A stretch of 31,894 nucleotides of DNA from a virus (IMGVR_UViG_2558860161_000001), one strand, 5' to 3'; positions 3,738 to 18,765 are shown, counted from the stretch's first letter. Translations and numbers: made by a program. The notes: a model not told the origin generated them from the letters alone.

Positions 3738-4904
3738 TTAAACTCCTTTGACGACGTCGGCGTTGACCTGCGGGACCCCGATTTCAGCAGCCAGATTCAT
3801 GGCGGCTATCACCAGGTTACTGACGGCCAGCGGATACAGCAGGCTGACCATGCTTTTACGGCTACTACCCAGATTGCTCAGACGGGCGCGGATGGCTTCC
3901 ACTGCGCTGGCGTCCATGATGTCGGCCAGCTGCTTACCGGCACGTTGCAGTTTGAACGTCAGAAACTCTTCGAGGCTGTTGTCCAGCGGCAGCAATTCAA
4001 CCAACTCGCAGCGCTGGACGACCTCACGGACTTCCATGTTGCGTTCGGACAGTTTGTCCGCCAGTTCAGGCTGGCCAATCAGCACGATGGACAGCAGTTT
4101 TTTGAAGCCGGACTCCAGTTCGAAGAAGCGTTTAAGGTGCTTCAGCGTCGGAATGGGAAGGCTGTGGGCCTCCTCAATCACCAGAACGTGGCTGAAACCC
4201 GCCTGACTGCTGTCCTTCAGGACTCGGTGCAACTGGCGGAAGCGGGCGTCCTGGCTGCGTTTGATACTCTCCAGCGGCGCGATGGTGCTGATGATGGCCT
4301 CGGCGATAGCTGCCGCCTTCAGGGTTTTGCCCTTCACGTCGTTGTCTTCCATGGCGATGATGTATGGCTCGATTACAATCACCGGCGCGTTCTCGCGGTT
4401 GACGCGTTCAATCAGGTCGCGGCGCAGCGTGGATTTACCCGCACCGGACTCGCCGATAACCGCCAGAAAGCCACCATGGCGGGCGGTCTGGAACAGCGCC
4501 TCACGCACGTAGCGGATATCCGGCGTGGTGAACACATCGTCCGCGCCCTGCATGGCTTCATCGGCGAACGGATCACGGAAAAGGCCAAACGCTTTTTTGG
4601 TTGCTGGAAATAACACCTGCTTTTTGAGTAACATGTTCTCTTCCTCACTGAGGTTGGTTTTATCGGTAGTACCCGCTGTACGGGGCGTGACAGCGCCCTG
4701 TGCAGCATCAAAACTTTTCACTGTATCAATCCCCTTACTTTCCAGATACAACGCCAGACGCTGGCGTACCTCTTCGGGGCTGGTGCGTGGCCACTCGTTA
4801 TGGTTCACAATCTGGGCCAGCGTGGCCTCGGAAACGGCGACGGCTCTTGCCACCACCGCCTGCGGGATGCGGGCCTCTTTCAGTTGTTGCTTCAGTACCA
4901 GCAT
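3738..4904 (-). CDS. Transposition helper AAA+ ATPase (MuB/TniB-like)
   Basis: Walker A GESGAGKST and Walker B-like HVLVIEEAH. GAGGAGG Shine-Dalgarno before ATG at 4902..4904. Immediately downstream of the transposase gene, as in Mu A-B. Confidence 0.85.
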   Translation of the reverse strand: MLVLKQQLKEARIPQAVVARAVAVSEATLAQIVNHNEWPRTSPEEVRQRLALYLESKGIDTVKSFDAAQGAVTPRTAGTTDKTNLSEEENMLLKKQVLFPATKKAFGLFRDPFADEAMQGADDVFTTPDIRYVREALFQTARHGGFLAVIGESGAGKSTLRRDLIERVNRENAPVIVIEPYIIAMEDNDVKGKTLKAAAIAEAIISTIAPLESIKRSQDARFRQLHRVLKDSSQAGFSHVLVIEEAHSLPIPTLKHLKRFFELESGFKKLLSIVLIGQPELADKLSERNMEVREVVQRCELVELLPLDNSLEEFLTFKLQRAGKQLADIMDASAVEAIRARLSNLGSSRKSMVSLLYPLAVSNLVIAAMNLAAEIGVPQVNADVVKGV

Positions 4905-4914
4905 GCCTTCCTCC

Positions 4915-6684
4915 TCAGTTACCGTTAACGATGCTGATAACGCTGTTGCGGGCCGGAGTGGTCAGGGTAACCATCACCTCATCCAGCGCGGCTTCAGGTA
5001 CGCCATCCGGGTACTGCGCCGTTAACTGGCGGTAATGTTCCGGCGTCCAGATATGGCCGTTAGCGCCAAACTTCTCGCGCAGGGCTTTCGCCGCCTCCAC
5101 ATGGGTCAGCGGACGCTGCTCAATACGCGGCCCGCGCACGTCTGAAGCCTGACCGCGCTTCGGCATATAGGCCGGAAGCGTGGTGTCGTCGATATGTTTG
5201 TACGGGTCAAGTCGCCCGCCGAACGGCAGCGCCTTCGCCTTGCGTGCAGCAGCTGCATCGGTGGCGTTATCGGTGCCCGTAACCAGCTCTTCGATTTCTT
5301 TTGCCGCCGTCTGCGCCGGGGTCTCCGGCAGGGCTTTGTAGTTTTCGCCAAATACCGCCGCGTTTTCGGCAAAGCCGAACTCGTTCTTTCTGACCTCCTC
5401 GACCAGGAAGAACGTCTCGTGACCGTCCTCACCGGTCAGCACCACCTGCGCCACATCGCTGCGCCACGGGTTACGGGTAATCATCAGTTTTTCGCCGACC
5501 AGTACGCCCGGTACCGTCGAAACGTCAAACTCATTGCCCCGGAACGAGACGCGCAGTTTTGGTGTGACCTTACGGAGTTCCGGTGCGGCCACCGCCAGTT
5601 CGCGGCAAACCTCAACGGATGGCGCTTTTTTCAGCTGGTCAGCAGTAATCTTCAGCCAGATATCCGTGCGGGTTTTACCGTGGCGGCTGTGGACCGCCGT
5701 GGCGTTAAAGTGGCTGCGCCATTTCACCGCCAGTGCGTTCAGTTCGTCCAGGCTATGAACCGGCTGGAATTTGAGACCCGGCTCCAGTTTACGTTCGATA
5801 ATGTCACGGGCCTTTTCCACCTGCCCGGTGGCGCGGGCGTTATGCGGCTTGTGCGCTATCAGATTGATGCCCAGCGAGCGGCACATGTTTTTCGTCATGC
5901 CAGCGGTGTTCGCCGAACCGGGATCAAGGTAGAGTATTTTCGGCACGCCGTGCAGCACGTCCGCGCCGCCGCGCTCCTGCATGGCGTTGATAAGCACAGA
6001 ACAGAGGTTCTCACCAGATTCCGCACCCATCACGTACTCAACGTAAATCCAGCCGCTGGTATGGTCGGTAATCTCGTAACTCCACACGCGGTCACTGGCG
6101 ATGCGGGCGATGTTGGCAGGCTTGTTCTTGTAGAACTTCGAGCTGTCCATCACCTGCAACCCTTTATGGCCGTTGCTCAGGTAGTAAAGCGTACAAAGTG
6201 AGGCATCAATCTCCCAGACGTGATTGGGATGCAGGCTGGCCATCTCGGACGACGGGGCCGGTGCGTCAAGCTGTTCCGGGTGCAGACCATAGTTCCGCAG
6301 GGCGCGGCTGATGGTGTCCTCGGACAGCGGGAAAAACTCGCCTGTGGCCTCGTCCGTTCTGCCAGCAGTGATAAAGCCGTTTGACCGCAGGGTCTCCACC
6401 GCATCCGCGATGGAATACAGGCGCTTACCGTTCTTACGGGTGGCCTCGCGCAGCGTGGCAGATATCAGCGCGGCTTCGTCGCGGCTCAGGGCACTGCGCC
6501 CGGCATCGGCGCGTTTTTTACGTTTGTCAGTCACTGATACCTCCTTCAGCTTGCGCAGCAGGGTGGCGCGGGAAATGCCCAGTTCGGCGCAGGCGGCATC
6601 ATATATCGCACCACGCTTACCATGCCCCGCGTCACGTGCCGCGCGGGCAACATAAACCAGTCGTTCAGTCAGGGCGGCACTCAT
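4915..6684 (-). CDS. DDE transposase (transposable-phage TnpA, rve/Tn552-like catalytic core)
   Basis: 589 aa. N-terminal HTH-like region, then catalytic residues in HVWEIDAS and ILYLDPGSANT contexts followed by a conserved Glu region. AGGAGG Shine-Dalgarno 8 nt upstream. Confidence 0.9.
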   Translation of the reverse strand: MSAALTERLVYVARAARDAGHGKRGAIYDAACAELGISRATLLRKLKEVSVTDKRKKRADAGRSALSRDEAALISATLREATRKNGKRLYSIADAVETLRSNGFITAGRTDEATGEFFPLSEDTISRALRNYGLHPEQLDAPAPSSEMASLHPNHVWEIDASLCTLYYLSNGHKGLQVMDSSKFYKNKPANIARIASDRVWSYEITDHTSGWIYVEYVMGAESGENLCSVLINAMQERGGADVLHGVPKILYLDPGSANTAGMTKNMCRSLGINLIAHKPHNARATGQVEKARDIIERKLEPGLKFQPVHSLDELNALAVKWRSHFNATAVHSRHGKTRTDIWLKITADQLKKAPSVEVCRELAVAAPELRKVTPKLRVSFRGNEFDVSTVPGVLVGEKLMITRNPWRSDVAQVVLTGEDGHETFFLVEEVRKNEFGFAENAAVFGENYKALPETPAQTAAKEIEELVTGTDNATDAAAARKAKALPFGGRLDPYKHIDDTTLPAYMPKRGQASDVRGPRIEQRPLTHVEAAKALREKFGANGHIWTPEHYRQLTAQYPDGVPEAALDEVMVTLTTPARNSVISIVNGN

Positions 6685-6687
6685 GGG

Positions 6688-7596
6688 TTATGCCTCCTGC
6701 CCGTTAATCTCTGGCGTCGGGTCAGTCAGCCATGAAGGGGCGGCGTTGCCTGTCGGCTCGTCCGGCAGGTCAAATGTGGAGCGTAGGCTACGCGCGGTGC
6801 TTTCCAACTGGCAGACCAGACCGGCCATAAAGTCTCTGGGGGTATCAATCATATTTTCAGCACAGTATGCGCACAGGGTCTCAAAGGCGCTGGACAGTCG
6901 AACGGCGATGGCAGATTCCGCCTCAACCGCTAACGCTGTAACTTCCGCACGCAGCTTCTTCACCTCTTCGTCAGGCTTGGGCGGCTGGATACGGGATTTC
7001 TTCTCCAGTTTTGTGGAGAGCGAGTCGATTTTTTCGTTTTTGTCGGCAAGCACGCGCTGTTGTGCTGCGTTGGTTTCGCGGGCTTCACGTAGGGCTTGAC
7101 GCAATTCTCTACAGCTCATGCGGTCGACATCATCTAGTTTCAGACCCGCTACAGTGCCACCATCAGCCAGTTCAGCGAGAGATTCATCATCTTCAGTCAT
7201 CAATTCAAAAAGTTTGGATTTACCCAAATGTGCCAACGTTGGCACATTTGATTTCAGTGCGGGGGATAAGTATTTAGTCGATGCTTGCATCATCCGCACA
7301 GAAGTTCGGTATGGTAAGCCCAACTCATTTTCAAGAATGTTAATAAATTCCCCGTGCGGCTCATTTTCTTTAAGAATTACAAGGCGCTTACCTGCTTCCA
7401 GCATCGCCTCAGCACTCTGTGCCATATAAAACCGTGTTTCGTGAACAATACGATCACGTTCATACGGCAGACCATCACCGAACTGCTGCATGATTTCGAG
7501 GCGATGTTCGGTCATGGCATTAAGACTAACGTTGAGGCCATCACTCAGCGGAGCATCTTCCATTAGTTCAACTGGTTGTGATTTTGTGCGTCCCAT
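6688..7596 (-). CDS. Early protein with DUF3102-like N-terminal domain and central coiled coil
   Basis: Motif AGKRLVILKENEPHGEFINILENELGLPYRTSVRMMQAS resembles the DUF3102 signature (from memory). GGAG Shine-Dalgarno before ATG at 7594..7596. Confidence 0.55.
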   Translation of the reverse strand: MGRTKSQPVELMEDAPLSDGLNVSLNAMTEHRLEIMQQFGDGLPYERDRIVHETRFYMAQSAEAMLEAGKRLVILKENEPHGEFINILENELGLPYRTSVRMMQASTKYLSPALKSNVPTLAHLGKSKLFELMTEDDESLAELADGGTVAGLKLDDVDRMSCRELRQALREARETNAAQQRVLADKNEKIDSLSTKLEKKSRIQPPKPDEEVKKLRAEVTALAVEAESAIAVRLSSAFETLCAYCAENMIDTPRDFMAGLVCQLESTARSLRSTFDLPDEPTGNAAPSWLTDPTPEINGQEA

Positions 7597-7605
7597 TTCA
7601 ACTCC

Positions 7606-7911
7606 TTAGCGACTACCAGCCATAACACGCTGGTTGATTTCATTAATACGATCCTGCGCCCGCGCCATTTCGGTACTGTGCGCCATGGCGATTTGTAAGA
7701 GCTGGACTCCAGGGGCAAAACGCCCGTTATCCAGTTTCAGGGCCAGTCCTTCTTCGATAAGGGTATTGAGCGCCCGATTGATATTCGCCGGGGACTCGCC
7801 CAGAGCTGACGCCAGCTCGCCGTTAGAAACACCGTTCAGAGCGTGACCGCGTAAAGCCTTAAGGACACGCAAAATACGGGTACCTGAGCTTGATGTATTT
7901 GGTTTACTCAT
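7606..7911 (-). CDS. Winged-helix HTH DNA-binding protein (IclR/MarR-like N-terminal domain)
   Basis: TRILRVLKALRGHALNGVSNGELASALGESPANINRALNTLIEEGLA is a typical wHTH pattern. ATGA overlap with the ner stop. Confidence 0.6.
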   Translation of the reverse strand: MSKPNTSSSGTRILRVLKALRGHALNGVSNGELASALGESPANINRALNTLIEEGLALKLDNGRFAPGVQLLQIAMAHSTEMARAQDRINEINQRVMAGSR

Positions 7912-8132
7912 GACGCCTCCTTGAGGATGCCGGGGGTAACTTCTTTGCCTATTGCGACCGAAAGGTCTCGCAAAATCCGATAAGTCAAACGACCGCGTGG
8001 AAGTTCGCTTTTGCCTGCCCAGCGGCTGACAGCCTGGGTGACTGTTCGTGGCTCATAGCCCGCGTTAAGCGCGAACTGGCGCAAGCTACTGCCTCTTTCA
8101 ACCAGCCGTGCCCGAACTTGTTGTTTGTTCAT
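7908..8132 (-). CDS. ner: Ner-like DNA-binding protein (Ner/Nlp family), first gene of the early operon
   Basis: 74 aa from ATG at 8130..8132 (AGGA Shine-Dalgarno upstream). LRQFALNAGYEPRTVTQAVSR resembles the Mu Ner/E. coli Nlp HTH. Confidence 0.7.
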   Translation of the reverse strand: MNKQQVRARLVERGSSLRQFALNAGYEPRTVTQAVSRWAGKSELPRGRLTYRILRDLSVAIGKEVTPGILKEAS

Positions 8133-8176
8133 ATGCACCGTGTTCCTGTTGGGTTATGATGTACTCTATTGGGTCT

Positions 8177-8204
8177 ATTGTACGCACCCGAACGGGTATG
8201 TCAA
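8177..8204 (-). promoter_or_regulatory. Predicted early promoter (Pe): -35 TTGACA, 16-nt spacer, -10 TACAAT, with dyad operator ACCCG-AA-CGGGT in the spacer
   Basis: Reverse complement of 8199..8204 is TTGACA and of 8177..8182 is TACAAT. The inverted repeat at 8186..8197 sits between them. Located about 45 nt upstream of the ner start codon. Confidence 0.55.
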
Positions 8205-8220
8205 ATTGAGATATGTTCAA

Positions 8221-8631
8221 ATGAGTATAAAAGAGAGATTGCGCGAAGCGATGGATGCTAAGAGTCTGACAATTAAGGCATTGTCAGACTTGTCAAAAAT
8301 TCCATATCGCTCACTTCAAAACTATCTGCGTGGAGAGAGAGAACCTAATGCAGAGGCTCTTGTTGCGCTAAGCACCCATTTGAACATATCAATAGATTGG
8401 CTACTTACTGGTAAAGGGGAAGCTGTTGGGGTAGAGAAAGCACAGCCAGCTAATCAGGAGCAGCATTTCAACCAGTCTGATCTGAAGTTATTGGAGCTGC
8501 TCAACCAACTGGAGCCAGAGGTGCGAAAAGAGTTGCTGCGAGGCGCTGAGGAAAAACAGCGAATGATTGATATGGAAAAACAGCTTAAGGAGCTGTCCGC
8601 AGCGTTCGAAAGATTAAAAAATACGGGTTAA
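8221..8631 (+). CDS. XRE-family HTH repressor (CI/c-like immunity repressor, no peptidase domain)
   Basis: N-terminal HTH (LTIKALSDLSKIPYRSLQNYLRGEREP...ISIDWLLTGKG) and C-terminal coiled coil. Divergent from the early operon. ATG at 8221 preferred over the upstream alternative start of the track ORF. Confidence 0.7.
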   Translation: MSIKERLREAMDAKSLTIKALSDLSKIPYRSLQNYLRGEREPNAEALVALSTHLNISIDWLLTGKGEAVGVEKAQPANQEQHFNQSDLKLLELLNQLEPEVRKELLRGAEEKQRMIDMEKQLKELSAAFERLKNTG

Positions 8632-8672
8632 TCTGTTCCTATTAAGAACATTATAGGTATAAGGACATGACT

Positions 8673-9200
8673 ATGCGCAAATTATTTTTACCGTTGATAT
8701 TTGTTTTATCTGGGTGTGGAGATAATACCGATCCTGCTGATACGTCCACCACAGCTAAGGAGCACGCGGTTTTTAGCGTTGAAACAGATAATCCGGTTGT
8801 AAATCGCGAATTACCGTTTATTCGCCAACAACTCCCCGGCCTGGATAAGTACGCGGACAGTTTTGAAAAAGTCGAAGTATCCGAGGATAGCGAACGTCCG
8901 GTGACAACGGTGCAGTTTCATATTAAAGACGAAAATAATATTCCAAGTGACTACATAGCCTCTGGTCATAATTGTTATTTGTTCATATCAAATAATGCCC
9001 ACGAAGTGAAAATATCTAAATCAGCATGTCAGGCTGTTTTTTTCGATAAAACGGATGTTCCTGGTGGAGACCTGACCGTGAAACTTGATAAGGAAAAAGT
9101 TCCTATGACAGATGATGGTAAGACCCCGCGAGCAGGTTGTTTGAAAGCTTATTCACCAGAGCCAGATAATGATTATTGGACTTGTCCAAGGCAGGATTAA
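8673..9200 (+). CDS. Lipoprotein of unknown function (moron; lipobox LSGC)
   Basis: Signal peptide MRKLFLPLIFVLSGC with lipobox Cys. Four further Cys in the mature part. AAGGA Shine-Dalgarno 7 nt before ATG at 8673. Gene and the adjacent repressor are markedly AT-richer (about 40-43% GC by eye) than the rest of the prophage (about 55-60%). Confidence 0.65.
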   Translation: MRKLFLPLIFVLSGCGDNTDPADTSTTAKEHAVFSVETDNPVVNRELPFIRQQLPGLDKYADSFEKVEVSEDSERPVTTVQFHIKDENNIPSDYIASGHNCYLFISNNAHEVKISKSACQAVFFDKTDVPGGDLTVKLDKEKVPMTDDGKTPRAGCLKAYSPEPDNDYWTCPRQD

Positions 9201-9247: not shown

Positions 9248-10018
9248 TCAAAAATTACAAATTACCAGCTCTTTCTTCGGGCTGGGTTTGCCTGTTACCT
9301 TAAGGTTGTAGCTGATATCAACCGACTGCATGTTCAGACCGTTGAATACCTGCCGCATTTCCGGGATATCGTTCACTGATATAATCATCTTCCCTTTGAT
9401 CCTTCGCGCTAAATCTGCCATGTGATCATAGTTTTCCAGCCCGAACTCCACACCATAGCCTTCCGTTCCCCAGTACGGTGGGTCACAGTAGAACAGCGTA
9501 TGCGGGCGATCATATCGCTCTATGCACTGGTGCCAGTCCAGATGCTCTATCAGCGTTCTCGACAGGCGCAGGTGTGCCATCGACAGTTCTTCCTCAATAC
9601 GCAGCAAATTGAAGCGCGGCGCACTGGTTGTAGAGGTACCGAATGTGTGATCGGCGACCTTGCCGCCAAATGCCTGTTTCTGCAGGTAGTAGAACCGGGC
9701 CGCCCGCTGAATGTCGGTGAGCGTTTCTTCCGGCGTATCCTGCAACCATTTGTAAATCTGACGGCTGACCAGCGCCCATTTGAACTGGCGAATAAATTCT
9801 TCCAGATGATGCTTGACCACCCGATAGAGGTTCACCAGTTCCCCGTTGATATCGTTAATGACTTCGGTCTTGCTGGGAGTCTTTAGGAAATAGAGCGCAG
9901 CTGCCCCGCAGAACGGCTCCACATAGCAGGTATGGGCCGGAAACAATGGTAAAATATGCTTCGCCAGACGACGTTTACCGCCAATCCATGGGACGATGGG
10001 TAAAGATTGTTCTTTCAT
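9248..10018 (-). CDS. Dam-family N6-adenine DNA methyltransferase (orphan, no cognate endonuclease seen)
   Basis: Motifs PWIGGKRRL, VEPFCGAAALYF (AdoMet binding) and DPPY (catalytic), in the D12-class order. Start set to ATG 10016..10018 rather than the TTG at 10042. Confidence 0.85.
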   Translation of the reverse strand: MKEQSLPIVPWIGGKRRLAKHILPLFPAHTCYVEPFCGAAALYFLKTPSKTEVINDINGELVNLYRVVKHHLEEFIRQFKWALVSRQIYKWLQDTPEETLTDIQRAARFYYLQKQAFGGKVADHTFGTSTTSAPRFNLLRIEEELSMAHLRLSRTLIEHLDWHQCIERYDRPHTLFYCDPPYWGTEGYGVEFGLENYDHMADLARRIKGKMIISVNDIPEMRQVFNGLNMQSVDISYNLKVTGKPSPKKELVICNF

Positions 10019-10121
10019 TATCCGTAAGCCTTTTGCAATCAATGAAAATATGGCAGGCTAGTCTGGTCTCGCGAGACTGACTGAACCCTGGTCGGCTCAC
10101 AGTGCATACCTGTGGGTTGAT

Positions 10122-17667: not shown

Positions 17668-18765
17668 ATGCCAGCCATTCACATTTTTAAAGCCGGTACT
17701 CATACCGATATGCACGGCACGAAATTGCCGTTCACGCAAAGCGATCTTGCCGCCTGCGTGAAAGCCTATGACCCGTCCGTCCATGAAGCACCACTCGTTA
17801 TCGGCCACCCCAAAACGGAAGACCCGGCGTGGGGCTGGGTGAAATCCCTGTCGCTTAACGGCGGCGATCTGCTGGCTGAGCCTGACCAGCTCGACCCGCA
17901 GTTTGCCGAACTGGTGGGCAACGGGCGCTTCAAGAAGGTCTCAGCCTCGTTCTATCTCCCGGACTCACCGAACAACCCGAAGCCCGGCACGCTTTACCTG
18001 CGTCATGTCGGCTTTCTGGGGGCGCAGCCACCGTCCATTAAGGGGCTTAAGCAGGTTTCGTTTGGTGAGAAAGAAGAAGGCGTCGTGGAGTTTGCCGACT
18101 GGAGTGATATCACCAACGCCTCTTTATGGGGCCGTCTGCGCGATTTTCTGATCGCCCAGTTCGGGCTGGACGAGACCGACAAGGTGCTTCCTTCATGGCA
18201 GGTGGACTCCCTGCGTGAAGAGGCTTACCGCGACACCGGGAAGTCTGAACCGGACTTCAGTGAACACAATCCCACCCCTCAAAAAGAGAACAGCACCATG
18301 ACTGAAGAAGAAATCAAAGCGCTTCAGGCGGAAAACACGCGTCTGAAAGCGGAAGCCACCCAGCGGGCGGAACAGGAAGCGAAGGCTAAGCAGGACAAAC
18401 TGCACGCGGACAACGTCTCCTTTGCCGAGAAGCTGGTTGGCGATGGCCGACTGGCTCCTAAAGCGAAGTCGGTTGTCGTGGCCATTCTGGACGCGGTCTC
18501 TGCAGGCGACAAGCCGGTTGAGTTTGCCGAAGGCGATATCCGCACCCCTCTGGCCACGGCGTTTAAGACGCTGCTGGACAGCACTGAGCCGGTACTGAAT
18601 TTCAGTGAGCACGCGACCAAAGACCGCGTGAACACGGAGATCAAAACGACGTCAGCAGAGTTCGCTGAAGCCGACCCGGAACGTCTGGCGCTGCATCAGA
18701 AAGCGCTGGAACTGTCGAAAAAAGAAGGCATCAGCTACGACGCTGCTGTCTCCCGCTGCCTGTAA
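17668..18765 (+). CDS. Head protease/scaffold protein (Mu I-like)
   Basis: 365 aa. N-terminal Mu I-type domain (MPAIHIFKAGTHTDMHGTKLPFTQSDL...) and an acidic/coiled-coil C-terminal scaffold-like region. Confidence 0.8.
   Translation: MPAIHIFKAGTHTDMHGTKLPFTQSDLAACVKAYDPSVHEAPLVIGHPKTEDPAWGWVKSLSLNGGDLLAEPDQLDPQFAELVGNGRFKKVSASFYLPDSPNNPKPGTLYLRHVGFLGAQPPSIKGLKQVSFGEKEEGVVEFADWSDITNASLWGRLRDFLIAQFGLDETDKVLPSWQVDSLREEAYRDTGKSEPDFSEHNPTPQKENSTMTEEEIKALQAENTRLKAEATQRAEQEAKAKQDKLHADNVSFAEKLVGDGRLAPKAKSVVVAILDAVSAGDKPVEFAEGDIRTPLATAFKTLLDSTEPVLNFSEHATKDRVNTEIKTTSAEFAEADPERLALHQKALELSKKEGISYDAAVSRCL

Follow-up and report, generated by a model that had tools for sequence, protein, structure and literature searches.

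In phage Mu, the early promoter (Pe) and the repressor promoter (Pc) face each other, and the polymerases that use them are mutually exclusive. A published account describes the Mu promoters PcM and Pe simply as divergent (PMC3820752). In B3 and Fc02, overlapping pE and pC2 promoters were predicted in the spacer between ner and repc; in Fc02, a B3-like phage, RNA-seq after inactivation of a temperature-sensitive repressor revealed a burst of transcription starting upstream of the ner-like gene, and in the lysogen the repressor is transcribed mainly from a distal promoter, pC1 (PMC9936078). That a phage repressor can have several operators and opposed promoters is known already, and for B3 and Fc02 such a promoter layout was predicted and in part tested. 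In the literature, we found no start site, footprint or binding assay for phages with the repressor family described below, no operator mapping for BcepMu-like phages and nothing relevant on phage PhiKM. What is new here is a predicted operator map for this repressor family, a candidate fourth site inside the repressor gene and the proposed boundaries of an immunity cassette.

We analyzed a stretch of viral DNA of 31,894 nucleotides (hereafter, the window). Approximately 1.9 kb around the switch shows 99.9% identity to a prophage that, in the E. coli AW1.7 chromosome, is inserted within an Orn/Lys/Arg decarboxylase gene, adjoining melR. The same region has a match in 71 of 5,426 complete E. 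coli genomes, and two deposited phage records are 98.6-98.7% identical to it. According to the AW1.7 annotation, the leftward genes begin with those for a Ner-like protein, a wHTH regulator, a DUF3102 protein and a DDE transposase (7908..8138, 7606..7911, 6688..7596 and 4915..6684 in the window, all on the minus strand) and continue with an ExeA-type (MuB-like) ATPase, several small genes, GemA and Mor. The rightward genes code for the repressor and a lipoprotein, followed by holin, transglycosylase, and head and tail genes. Thus, the repressor and a ner-type gene are oppositely transcribed, ner is the first gene of an operon that contains the DDE transposase and the MuB-like ATPase, and, as in the BcepMu/B3 group, the early operon runs leftward and the lysis and structural genes run rightward. 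Over its full length, the 589-aa transposase shows 68% identity to its BcepMu and phiE255 counterparts and 57% to the B3 and Fc02 enzymes; these identities to annotated BcepMu/B3 transposases (57-68%) are stronger evidence for its assignment than the Pfam rve model, whose match lies below the curated cutoff (31.4 vs 32.6 bits). Judging by the transposase identities and the gene order, the window therefore represents a BcepMu/B3-like transposable prophage of E. coli, and the region under study is its lysis/lysogeny control region. Such prophages are common in Enterobacteriaceae and Pseudomonas. The best explanation of the region as a whole, and one that we consider probable on the basis of comparative sequence analysis, is that 8155..8387 constitutes a BcepMu/B3-like immunity switch composed of Pe, four repressor dyads and a facing Pc.

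The predicted immunity repressor (8221..8631, plus strand; same start in the PGAP annotation) is a protein of 136 aa that matches only XRE/CI-type helix-turn-helix (HTH) families in Pfam, namely HTH_3 (E=5.8e-11), HTH_19 and Phage_CI_repr. Its family profile matches the DNA-binding domains of the ICEBs1 Xre-family regulator, 434, P22 C2 and 186 CI. The protein does not match Mu c, with its MuA-like winged-helix N-terminal domain; its matches are of the CI type. The initial annotation described a repressor devoid of an autocleavage domain, and our results agree: Pfam detects no S24 peptidase domain in the 136-aa protein, and its C-terminal half is modeled as a linker followed by helices. The AlphaFold2 model consists of a five-helix domain (residues 1-63, pLDDT of about 85), a disordered linker (70-84) and two helices (85-95 and 99-135) of low confidence, as would be expected for an oligomerization helix modeled as a monomer. 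In related Vibrio Mu-like phages, a similar HTH is fused to S24. SOS control was set aside, as a strict LexA box (CTGT-N8-ACAG) is absent from the entire window, and no antirepressor is annotated in the AW1.7 copy; these negative findings speak neither for nor against the antirepressor or other non-SOS route that the initial annotation suggested for induction. The Ner-like protein, a small DNA-binding protein (PHROG 8503) that starts at ATG 8132 (PGAP) or GTG 8138, is encoded by the first early gene. It shows weak similarity to Mu Ner (33% identity over 42 aa, pairwise E=5e-4) and a below-threshold match to Pfam HTH_35 (17.6 bits against a cutoff of 25; E=0.0039), and no relative with a solved structure was found for it by sequence.

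For comparison, we combined a search anchored on the repressor, which gave genome loci from Pantoea, Mixta, Lelliottia, Serratia, Pseudomonas and others, with a search anchored on the Ner-like protein, which gave 80 viral contigs. Together they yielded about 58 distinct ner-repressor intergenic regions with at least eight operator variants from two helix-turn-helix families.

The early promoter was the first element proposed by the initial annotation, and it holds up well. A minus-strand TTGACA (-35, 8199..8204) and TACAAT (-10, 8177..8182), separated by a spacer of 16 nt (8198..8183), match the sigma-70 consensus at 11 of 12 positions, with an expected start near 8170. No other match of 11/12 or better exists on the two strands of the window (31,894 bases), where first-order Markov simulations predict 0.12. 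In each of the 58 distinct related regions, the best minus-strand sigma-70 match, with a TTGAC-like -35, occupies the corresponding position, and GTCAA is present at the place of the -35. T1, A2 and T6 of the -10 are kept in 57 of the 58 (the exception, L092, has TGCAAT), while its middle bases vary (TACAAT, TACACT, TATACT, TAGGAT, TAGATT) and the spacer ranges from 16 to 18 nt in relatives. Such conservation is the pattern expected of a functional promoter. The promoter points leftward into the genes for the Ner-like protein, the wHTH regulator, the DUF3102 protein and the DDE transposase, which is consistent with the earlier proposal that it drives the early operon.

Facing Pe, the plus strand carries a TATGAT hexamer (8155..8160), overlooked in the initial annotation, that we propose as the -10 element of Pc, with a weak candidate -35, TATGCA, at 8132..8137. 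All 58 regions have a plus-strand TAnnnT hexamer 15-17 bp away from the Pe -10 (exactly 16 bp in 52 of them), in which positions 1, 2 and 6 never change and positions 3-5 are free to vary. The proposed promoter has a poor -35 and a merely partial extended -10. We consider it likely that this conserved hexamer marks the repressor promoter Pc, which would face Pe as in Mu, the two start sites being separated by just a few bases. A less probable reading, although one that we take seriously, is that TAnnnT is a Ner site or a part of the ner leader and that the repressor is transcribed from a distal promoter, as from pC1 in the Fc02 lysogen (PMC9936078). The poor -35 is compatible with this reading, as is the joint conservation of Ner and the block surrounding the hexamer (TTGGnTAAnATGTAC). 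On the other hand, invariance of positions 1, 2 and 6 combined with freedom at 3-5 is the signature of a -10 element, no plus-strand promoter with at least 9/12 matches was found between 7400 and 8130, and a proximal pC2 was predicted in B3 and Fc02 as well. Symmetry or repeats that could represent a Ner site were sought in 8139..8166, the block common to loci with identical Ner, and nothing convincing was seen. All four operator sites described below are located downstream of the proposed Pc start; thus, repressor bound to them would need to be read through by the polymerase.

Three other elements of this region were considered and set aside. A leaderless or proximal repressor promoter just 5' of ATG 8221 was rejected because its candidate hexamers lack conservation among relatives. 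For a structured RNA in the region or in the ner leader, Rfam gave nothing above noise, and folding of the leader was no better than that of shuffled sequences (z=0.35). Finally, an 11-nt perfect inverted repeat in the repressor gene (8263..8273 and 8280..8290) was judged to be due to chance: in relatives that encode the same amino acids it is broken at synonymous sites, with 6-10 of the 11 pairs kept.

The dyad that the initial annotation placed in the Pe spacer, ACCCG-AA-CGGGT, is present at 8186..8197 (ACCCGAACGGGT). A dyad with 5-bp arms is expected by chance with p of about 0.02 within the given 16-nt spacer and about 0.30 anywhere in the 82-nt intergenic region, and its pattern with one mismatch allowed occurs three times in the window against 1.2 expected. 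Taken by itself, the dyad is weak evidence; its weight comes from the related loci. At the dyad, close relatives mostly read ACCCAAACGGGT or ACACCCAAATGAGTGT; the perfect 5-bp arms are an allele-specific accident, and the conserved unit is larger than the 12-nt dyad. It comprises 16 bp, GCACCCGAACGGGTAT (8184..8199), which fill the Pe spacer; we refer to it as O1, the main predicted operator. Every immunity type has its own dyad in this spacer, and the dyad follows the type of the repressor HTH. It is GCACCC-N4-GGGTAT-like in the repressor type of the window (type A), GTACTC-AAAC-GAGTAG in Lelliottia, TCCCA-AA-TGGGA in one Pseudomonas group and TTATTCA-AAA-TGAATAA in loci with a PF07022-type HTH; other loci have TACGCA-AAT-TGCGTA, ATCCGCA-AAA-TGCGGAT or TTACCCA-ATA-CGGGTAA. 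A dyad stays in the spacer of every relative and varies with the DNA-binding domain of the repressor, so the proposal that it is the repressor target fits well, and O1 is the best operator candidate in the region.

To seek sites related to O1, the 16-mer from the spacer of each locus was slid along the sequence of that locus. Related sites appeared at three offsets: about -22 (termed O3), about +29 (O2) and +175 to +191 (O4). In addition, the 31,894 bases were scanned on both strands with a weight matrix derived exclusively from O1 and O4 sites of other type-A loci. The top four of about 64,000 positions start at 8184 (O1, 16.6 bits), 8372 (O4, 14.1 bits), 8213 (O2, 12.5 bits) and 8161 (O3, 9.9 bits) and all fall within 227 bp; the fifth match, at 17696, scores 7.4 bits. 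The four 16-bp dyads share roughly the form RYACYC-N4-GRGTRY. O2, ATGTTCAAATGAGTAT (8213..8228), covers the repressor ATG, with its center about 50 bp upstream of the expected Pe start. O3, GTACTCTATTGGGTCT (8161..8176), is the weakest predicted site. It exactly fills the gap separating the Pc -10 from the Pe -10, and the expected starts of both promoters fall within it; Pseudomonas relatives with this repressor type retain hardly more than a half-site here. O4, GCACCCATTTGAACAT (8372..8387), is the distal predicted operator. It occupies codons 51-56 of the repressor gene, 188 bp from O1, keeps its offset in almost every locus and varies along with O1. The view of a single compact dyad as the whole switch was consequently not borne out, given three more related 16-bp sites, one of which is intragenic.

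Co-variation of these sites with O1 was assessed by a self-versus-cross test, in which sites of loci with 39 distinct O1 sequences were compared with their own O1 and with dissimilar O1 sequences. Immunity types defined by single linkage of O1 similarity had merged unrelated types, and the comparison of self with dissimilar sequences was used instead. The related regions are phylogenetically non-independent, and the p-values accordingly overstate significance, with gains in matches out of 16 of +1.7 for O3 (p=5e-8), +2.0 for O2 (p=5e-5) and +2.5 for O4 (p=4e-7); the effect was absent from five control regions. Strict co-variation of O1 and O4 within type A fails (for example, O1 with GCACCA is found beside O4 with GTACTC), and the claim of co-variation rests on differences between types and subtypes.

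O2 and O4 overlap coding sequence, which raises the question of whether they are operators at all. It could be argued that O1, perhaps together with O3, is the sole operator and that O2 and O4 owe their appearance to the demands of translation initiation and of the protein sequence, respectively, and not to DNA binding. The start codon and the codons right after it, at which the choice of codon is often restricted, fall within O2, and O4 encodes conserved motifs, THLG[IV] or PY[AS]xC[VI]. Where the repressor has a PF07022-type HTH, the latter motif partly determines O4, which tracks O1 loosely and keeps a generic TTAYGCR form even where O1 differs. Codon usage speaks against this explanation, which we regard as improbable. 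Across 49 distinct repressor genes of type A, there are only two stretches at which the entropy of synonymous codons collapses: codons 2-4 (O2) and codons 52-56 (O4). At O2, serine is encoded by AGT in 38 of 39 cases, isoleucine by ATA in 40 of 44 and lysine by AAA in all 18. At O4, threonine is encoded by ACC or ACT only, histidine by CAT (36/36), glycine by GGT (36/41) and isoleucine by ATA (35/40); the leucine, whose codons are six-fold degenerate, is encoded by TTG in 46 of 49 genes and never by CTN, whereas seven other leucine codons in the same alignment have an entropy of about 2 bits. This pattern indicates that O2 and O4 are constrained as DNA. Furthermore, the amino-acid changes at O4 mirror changes in the operator. 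In the type with TCCCA half-sites, the threonine codon ACC of O4 is replaced by the serine codon TCC, and the glycine codon GGT by GGA. In three loci whose O1 left half is GCACCA (L144, L153 and L154), the histidine codon CAT is replaced by the asparagine codon AAT and the leucine codon TTG by TTA, and in the last two the right half of O1 is also changed, to TAGGTG. The outer base of O4 (proline CCT vs CCA) follows the O1 type too, and O2 is recovered by the matrix, whose training set consisted of O1 and O4 sites from other loci. In the clade of the window itself, O4 (GCACCCATTTGAACAT) has asparagine instead of glycine. The right half of this O4, GAACAT, matches the O2 left half in reverse complement and is identical to the O1 right half of another locus (L110); therefore, it is probably still usable as a half-site. 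No O4-like site was seen in Fc02 or BcepMu, both of which have O1 and a site at the start codon.

Another question is which of the two regulators recognizes the dyads. Because the gene layout resembles lambda cI/cro, the dyads might be shared with, or mainly bound by, the Ner-like (Cro-like) early protein, as lambda operators are by Cro and CI, and the left half of O3, GTACTCA, is indeed conserved across many immunity types. This possibility appears very unlikely in light of loci in which the two proteins have parted company. In loci L095-L105 of our set, the Ner-like protein is 91-99% identical to that of the window, yet the repressor HTH is different, and the dyads differ at all four positions along with it; conversely, loci in which Ner is only 64-86% identical retain the type-A dyads and the type-A repressor. 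Since the dyads track the repressor HTH and not the Ner-like protein, they would belong to the repressor, and the spacer dyad would be its operator.

The initial annotation also drew attention to a tandem TCTATTG repeat flanking the Pe -10. Both copies exist, at 8165..8171 and 8174..8180, although not on either side of the -10: the second overlaps it, and the first lies on its transcribed side, near the expected start and at the center of O3. An exact 7-mer tandem repeat is uncommon in this region by chance (p of about 0.02), and every close enterobacterial relative that has the same repressor retains this one. It is conserved solely where the entire O3 region is identical: it is degenerate in two loci, L114 and L117 (TCAATTG and TTTATTG), and absent both from Pseudomonas relatives of the same repressor type (GTACCTGTTTGTTCGCAGTATAC) and from loci of another type (type B) with Ner 96-99% identical. 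Its absence from distant relatives with the same repressor and from loci with near-identical Ner argues that the repeat is neither a conserved repressor site nor a Ner site, and we see nothing to support a role of its own for the repeat. The simplest model, in which the spacer dyad is the whole repressor target and the repeats are extra repressor or Ner sites, accounts for the dyad and the repeats that are present, but it has very little to recommend it when the copies are explained by the O3 center and the Pe -10 and three more operator-like sites rank second to fourth in the window.

Taken as repressor operators, the four sites suggest how the switch might work. The 136-aa XRE-type repressor would dimerize or oligomerize through its C-terminal helices and bind all four sites. 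At O1, the best site, it would block RNA polymerase at Pe, and O2 and O4 would add cooperativity or stabilize binding, possibly through a DNA loop. The long C-terminal helix in the structural model and the spacing of the site centers, which are close to whole helical turns, possibly point to looping: the distances are 188 bp for O1-O4, 159 bp for O2-O4 and 211 bp for O3-O4, or 17.9, 15.1 and 20.1 turns, respectively. With the two -10 hexamers just 16 bp apart, polymerases at Pc and Pe should exclude each other, so that blocking Pe would free the weak Pc. O3, as the weakest site, would be filled last, and both start sites would then be shut off, resulting in negative autoregulation of Pc. Upon loss of the repressor, Pe would fire and, by analogy with Mu Ner, the Ner-like protein would turn down Pc.

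The comparison with type-B loci, which have a different repressor HTH, further suggests that the sites and the HTH are exchanged together. DNA identity to these loci is 0.97 up to approximately 8160, drops to about 0.4-0.6 from there to approximately 8394 and then recovers; the C-terminal domain of the repressor is common to different immunity types, and the HTH is swapped. The exchangeable cassette delimited in this way (8167..8395) would consist of the right half of O3, O1, the Pe hexamers, O2, the HTH-coding region and O4. We tentatively propose, as a possibility that we would not yet favor over its negation, that this is a self-contained cassette of about 230 bp, in which Pe, the three proximal operators and the HTH-coding region, with its co-evolving embedded O4, are combined and a repressor oligomer loops the DNA over its own gene. 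If so, a recognition domain and one of its own binding sites share nucleotides and are inherited together when the immunity type is swapped. Such an arrangement explains how immunity types could be exchanged without touching the Ner-like gene or the oligomerization domain of the repressor, and the loci described here offer a natural set of orthogonal small repressor/operator pairs. The analysis provides a testable map of the promoter, four operators, a candidate repressor promoter and cassette boundaries. The understanding of phage switches is unchanged by it, as the logic is that of Mu, lambda and 186.

Among the known systems, Mu resembles this one in several respects. Both are transposable phages in which the repressor and a Ner-like gene are oppositely transcribed from a short region with several repressor sites (here, predicted ones), the early operon begins with ner (here, the Ner-like gene) and continues with transposase, MuB-like ATPase, GemA and Mor, and the early promoter is nearer to the repressor gene and the repressor promoter (here, the candidate Pc) nearer to ner. 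However, the repressor here is a small XRE/CI-type HTH protein, whereas Mu c is a winged-helix protein related to MuA; the regulatory region spans 88 bp compared to about 235 bp in Mu; and one of the predicted operators lies inside the repressor gene. B3, Fc02 and BcepMu belong to the same phage group by transposase and have the same gene order. In Fc02 and BcepMu, too, the Pe spacer contains a dyad and the repressor start codon a related site, and the facing Pe and candidate Pc match the overlapping pE and pC2 predicted in B3 and Fc02. On the other hand, the repressors of B3-like phages and BcepMu are barely related to that of the window (pairwise E=1e-4 to 2e-4, HTH only), and their Ner-like proteins are not detectably related; Fc02 and BcepMu do not show an O4-like intragenic site, and a counterpart of the distal pC1 of Fc02 was not found in the window.

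The CI repressors of lambda, 434 and P22 (C2) have a homologous HTH domain and graded dyad operators over lytic and maintenance promoters, and the predicted order of strength here, O1 > O2 > O3, would similarly lead to repression first and autoregulation last. Unlike the lambdoid repressors, the repressor of the window has no S24 peptidase domain and thus would not undergo RecA-stimulated autocleavage; in addition, the promoters would face each other here and are back to back in lambdoid phages, there is no sign here that the maintenance promoter is activated, and the early protein here does not appear to share the operators. Finally, auxiliary or distal operators that take part in looping are known from other systems: lac O2 in lacZ, gal OI in galE, the flanking sites of 186 CI and OD of TP901-1 CI. 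The predicted O4 is similar to these in being a site of the same specificity located inside coding sequence, about 150-210 bp from the promoter-proximal sites, and 186 CI has a PF07022-type HTH, as do sister immunity types of the family studied here. It differs from them in that the distal site lies in the HTH-coding region of the repressor itself and would travel with it as one exchangeable cassette.

Helix-turn-helix (HTH) domains 42% identical to that of the immunity repressor are present in Vibrio Mu-like phages (1.028.O and others; records H22-H30), where the features that bear them are mostly annotated as S24/S26 peptidase. The same DNA-binding domain is thus found in proteins that have an autocleavage module as well as in proteins that lack one.

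The start of the Ner-like gene, the first early gene on the minus strand, is ambiguous (8130-8138): the ATG at 8132, which PGAP selects, is located 11 nt from AGGA, whereas the alternative GTG at 8138 is located 5 nt from it. Relatives without the additional 6 nt start at the ATG. Many Pseudomonas relatives (among the Pseudomonas-type loci L127-L161) have a further in-frame ATG for the repressor, situated some 60 nt 5' of the usual one. It overlaps the -10 of the candidate repressor promoter and would lengthen the protein by 21 aa, to 156 aa. This extension is probably a mere open frame, because its ATG either coincides with the expected start site or precedes it. Within the repressor gene of the window, there is a perfect 11-nt inverted repeat (AGTCTGACAAT / ATTGTCAGACT; 8263-8290) with a 6-nt gap. 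It looks like a chance occurrence, because relatives with the same amino acids keep 6-10 of the 11 pairs and break the others at synonymous sites.

Immediately 3' of the repressor gene and in the same orientation is a gene (8667-9200) whose 177-aa product bears a lipoprotein signal (…LSGC). The protein has no Pfam match and belongs to PHROG family 10002, a family without an assigned function. The gene is probably co-transcribed with the repressor in the lysogen and is therefore a candidate lysogenic-conversion or exclusion gene. Its 3' end contains TTGAAA-18-GATAAT (9141-9170, plus strand), which, besides the early promoter, is the sole promoter-like site in the window scoring at least 10/12. 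A D12-class (Dam-like) N6-adenine methyltransferase gene (9248-10042, minus strand) converges on the repressor-lipoprotein unit.

The prophage of E. coli AW1.7 (locus L001, region 4735-5287) is inserted within an Orn/Lys/Arg decarboxylase gene adjoining melR, which it disrupts. The left end of the prophage almost coincides with the window start (window region about 135-686), near which the Mor gene is located (about 297-686).

The window differs from both Fc02 (locus L164, 1940-2130) and BcepMu (locus L165, 1700-1900) in its intragenic fourth operator-like site, which is absent from those two regions. The layout is alike: the early-promoter spacer contains a dyad in Fc02 (TGGGACATCAAAGTCCCA) and in BcepMu (GGTATGCGTTTGATTACC), as it does in the window, and in both phages a dyad-related site is again located at the repressor start codon.
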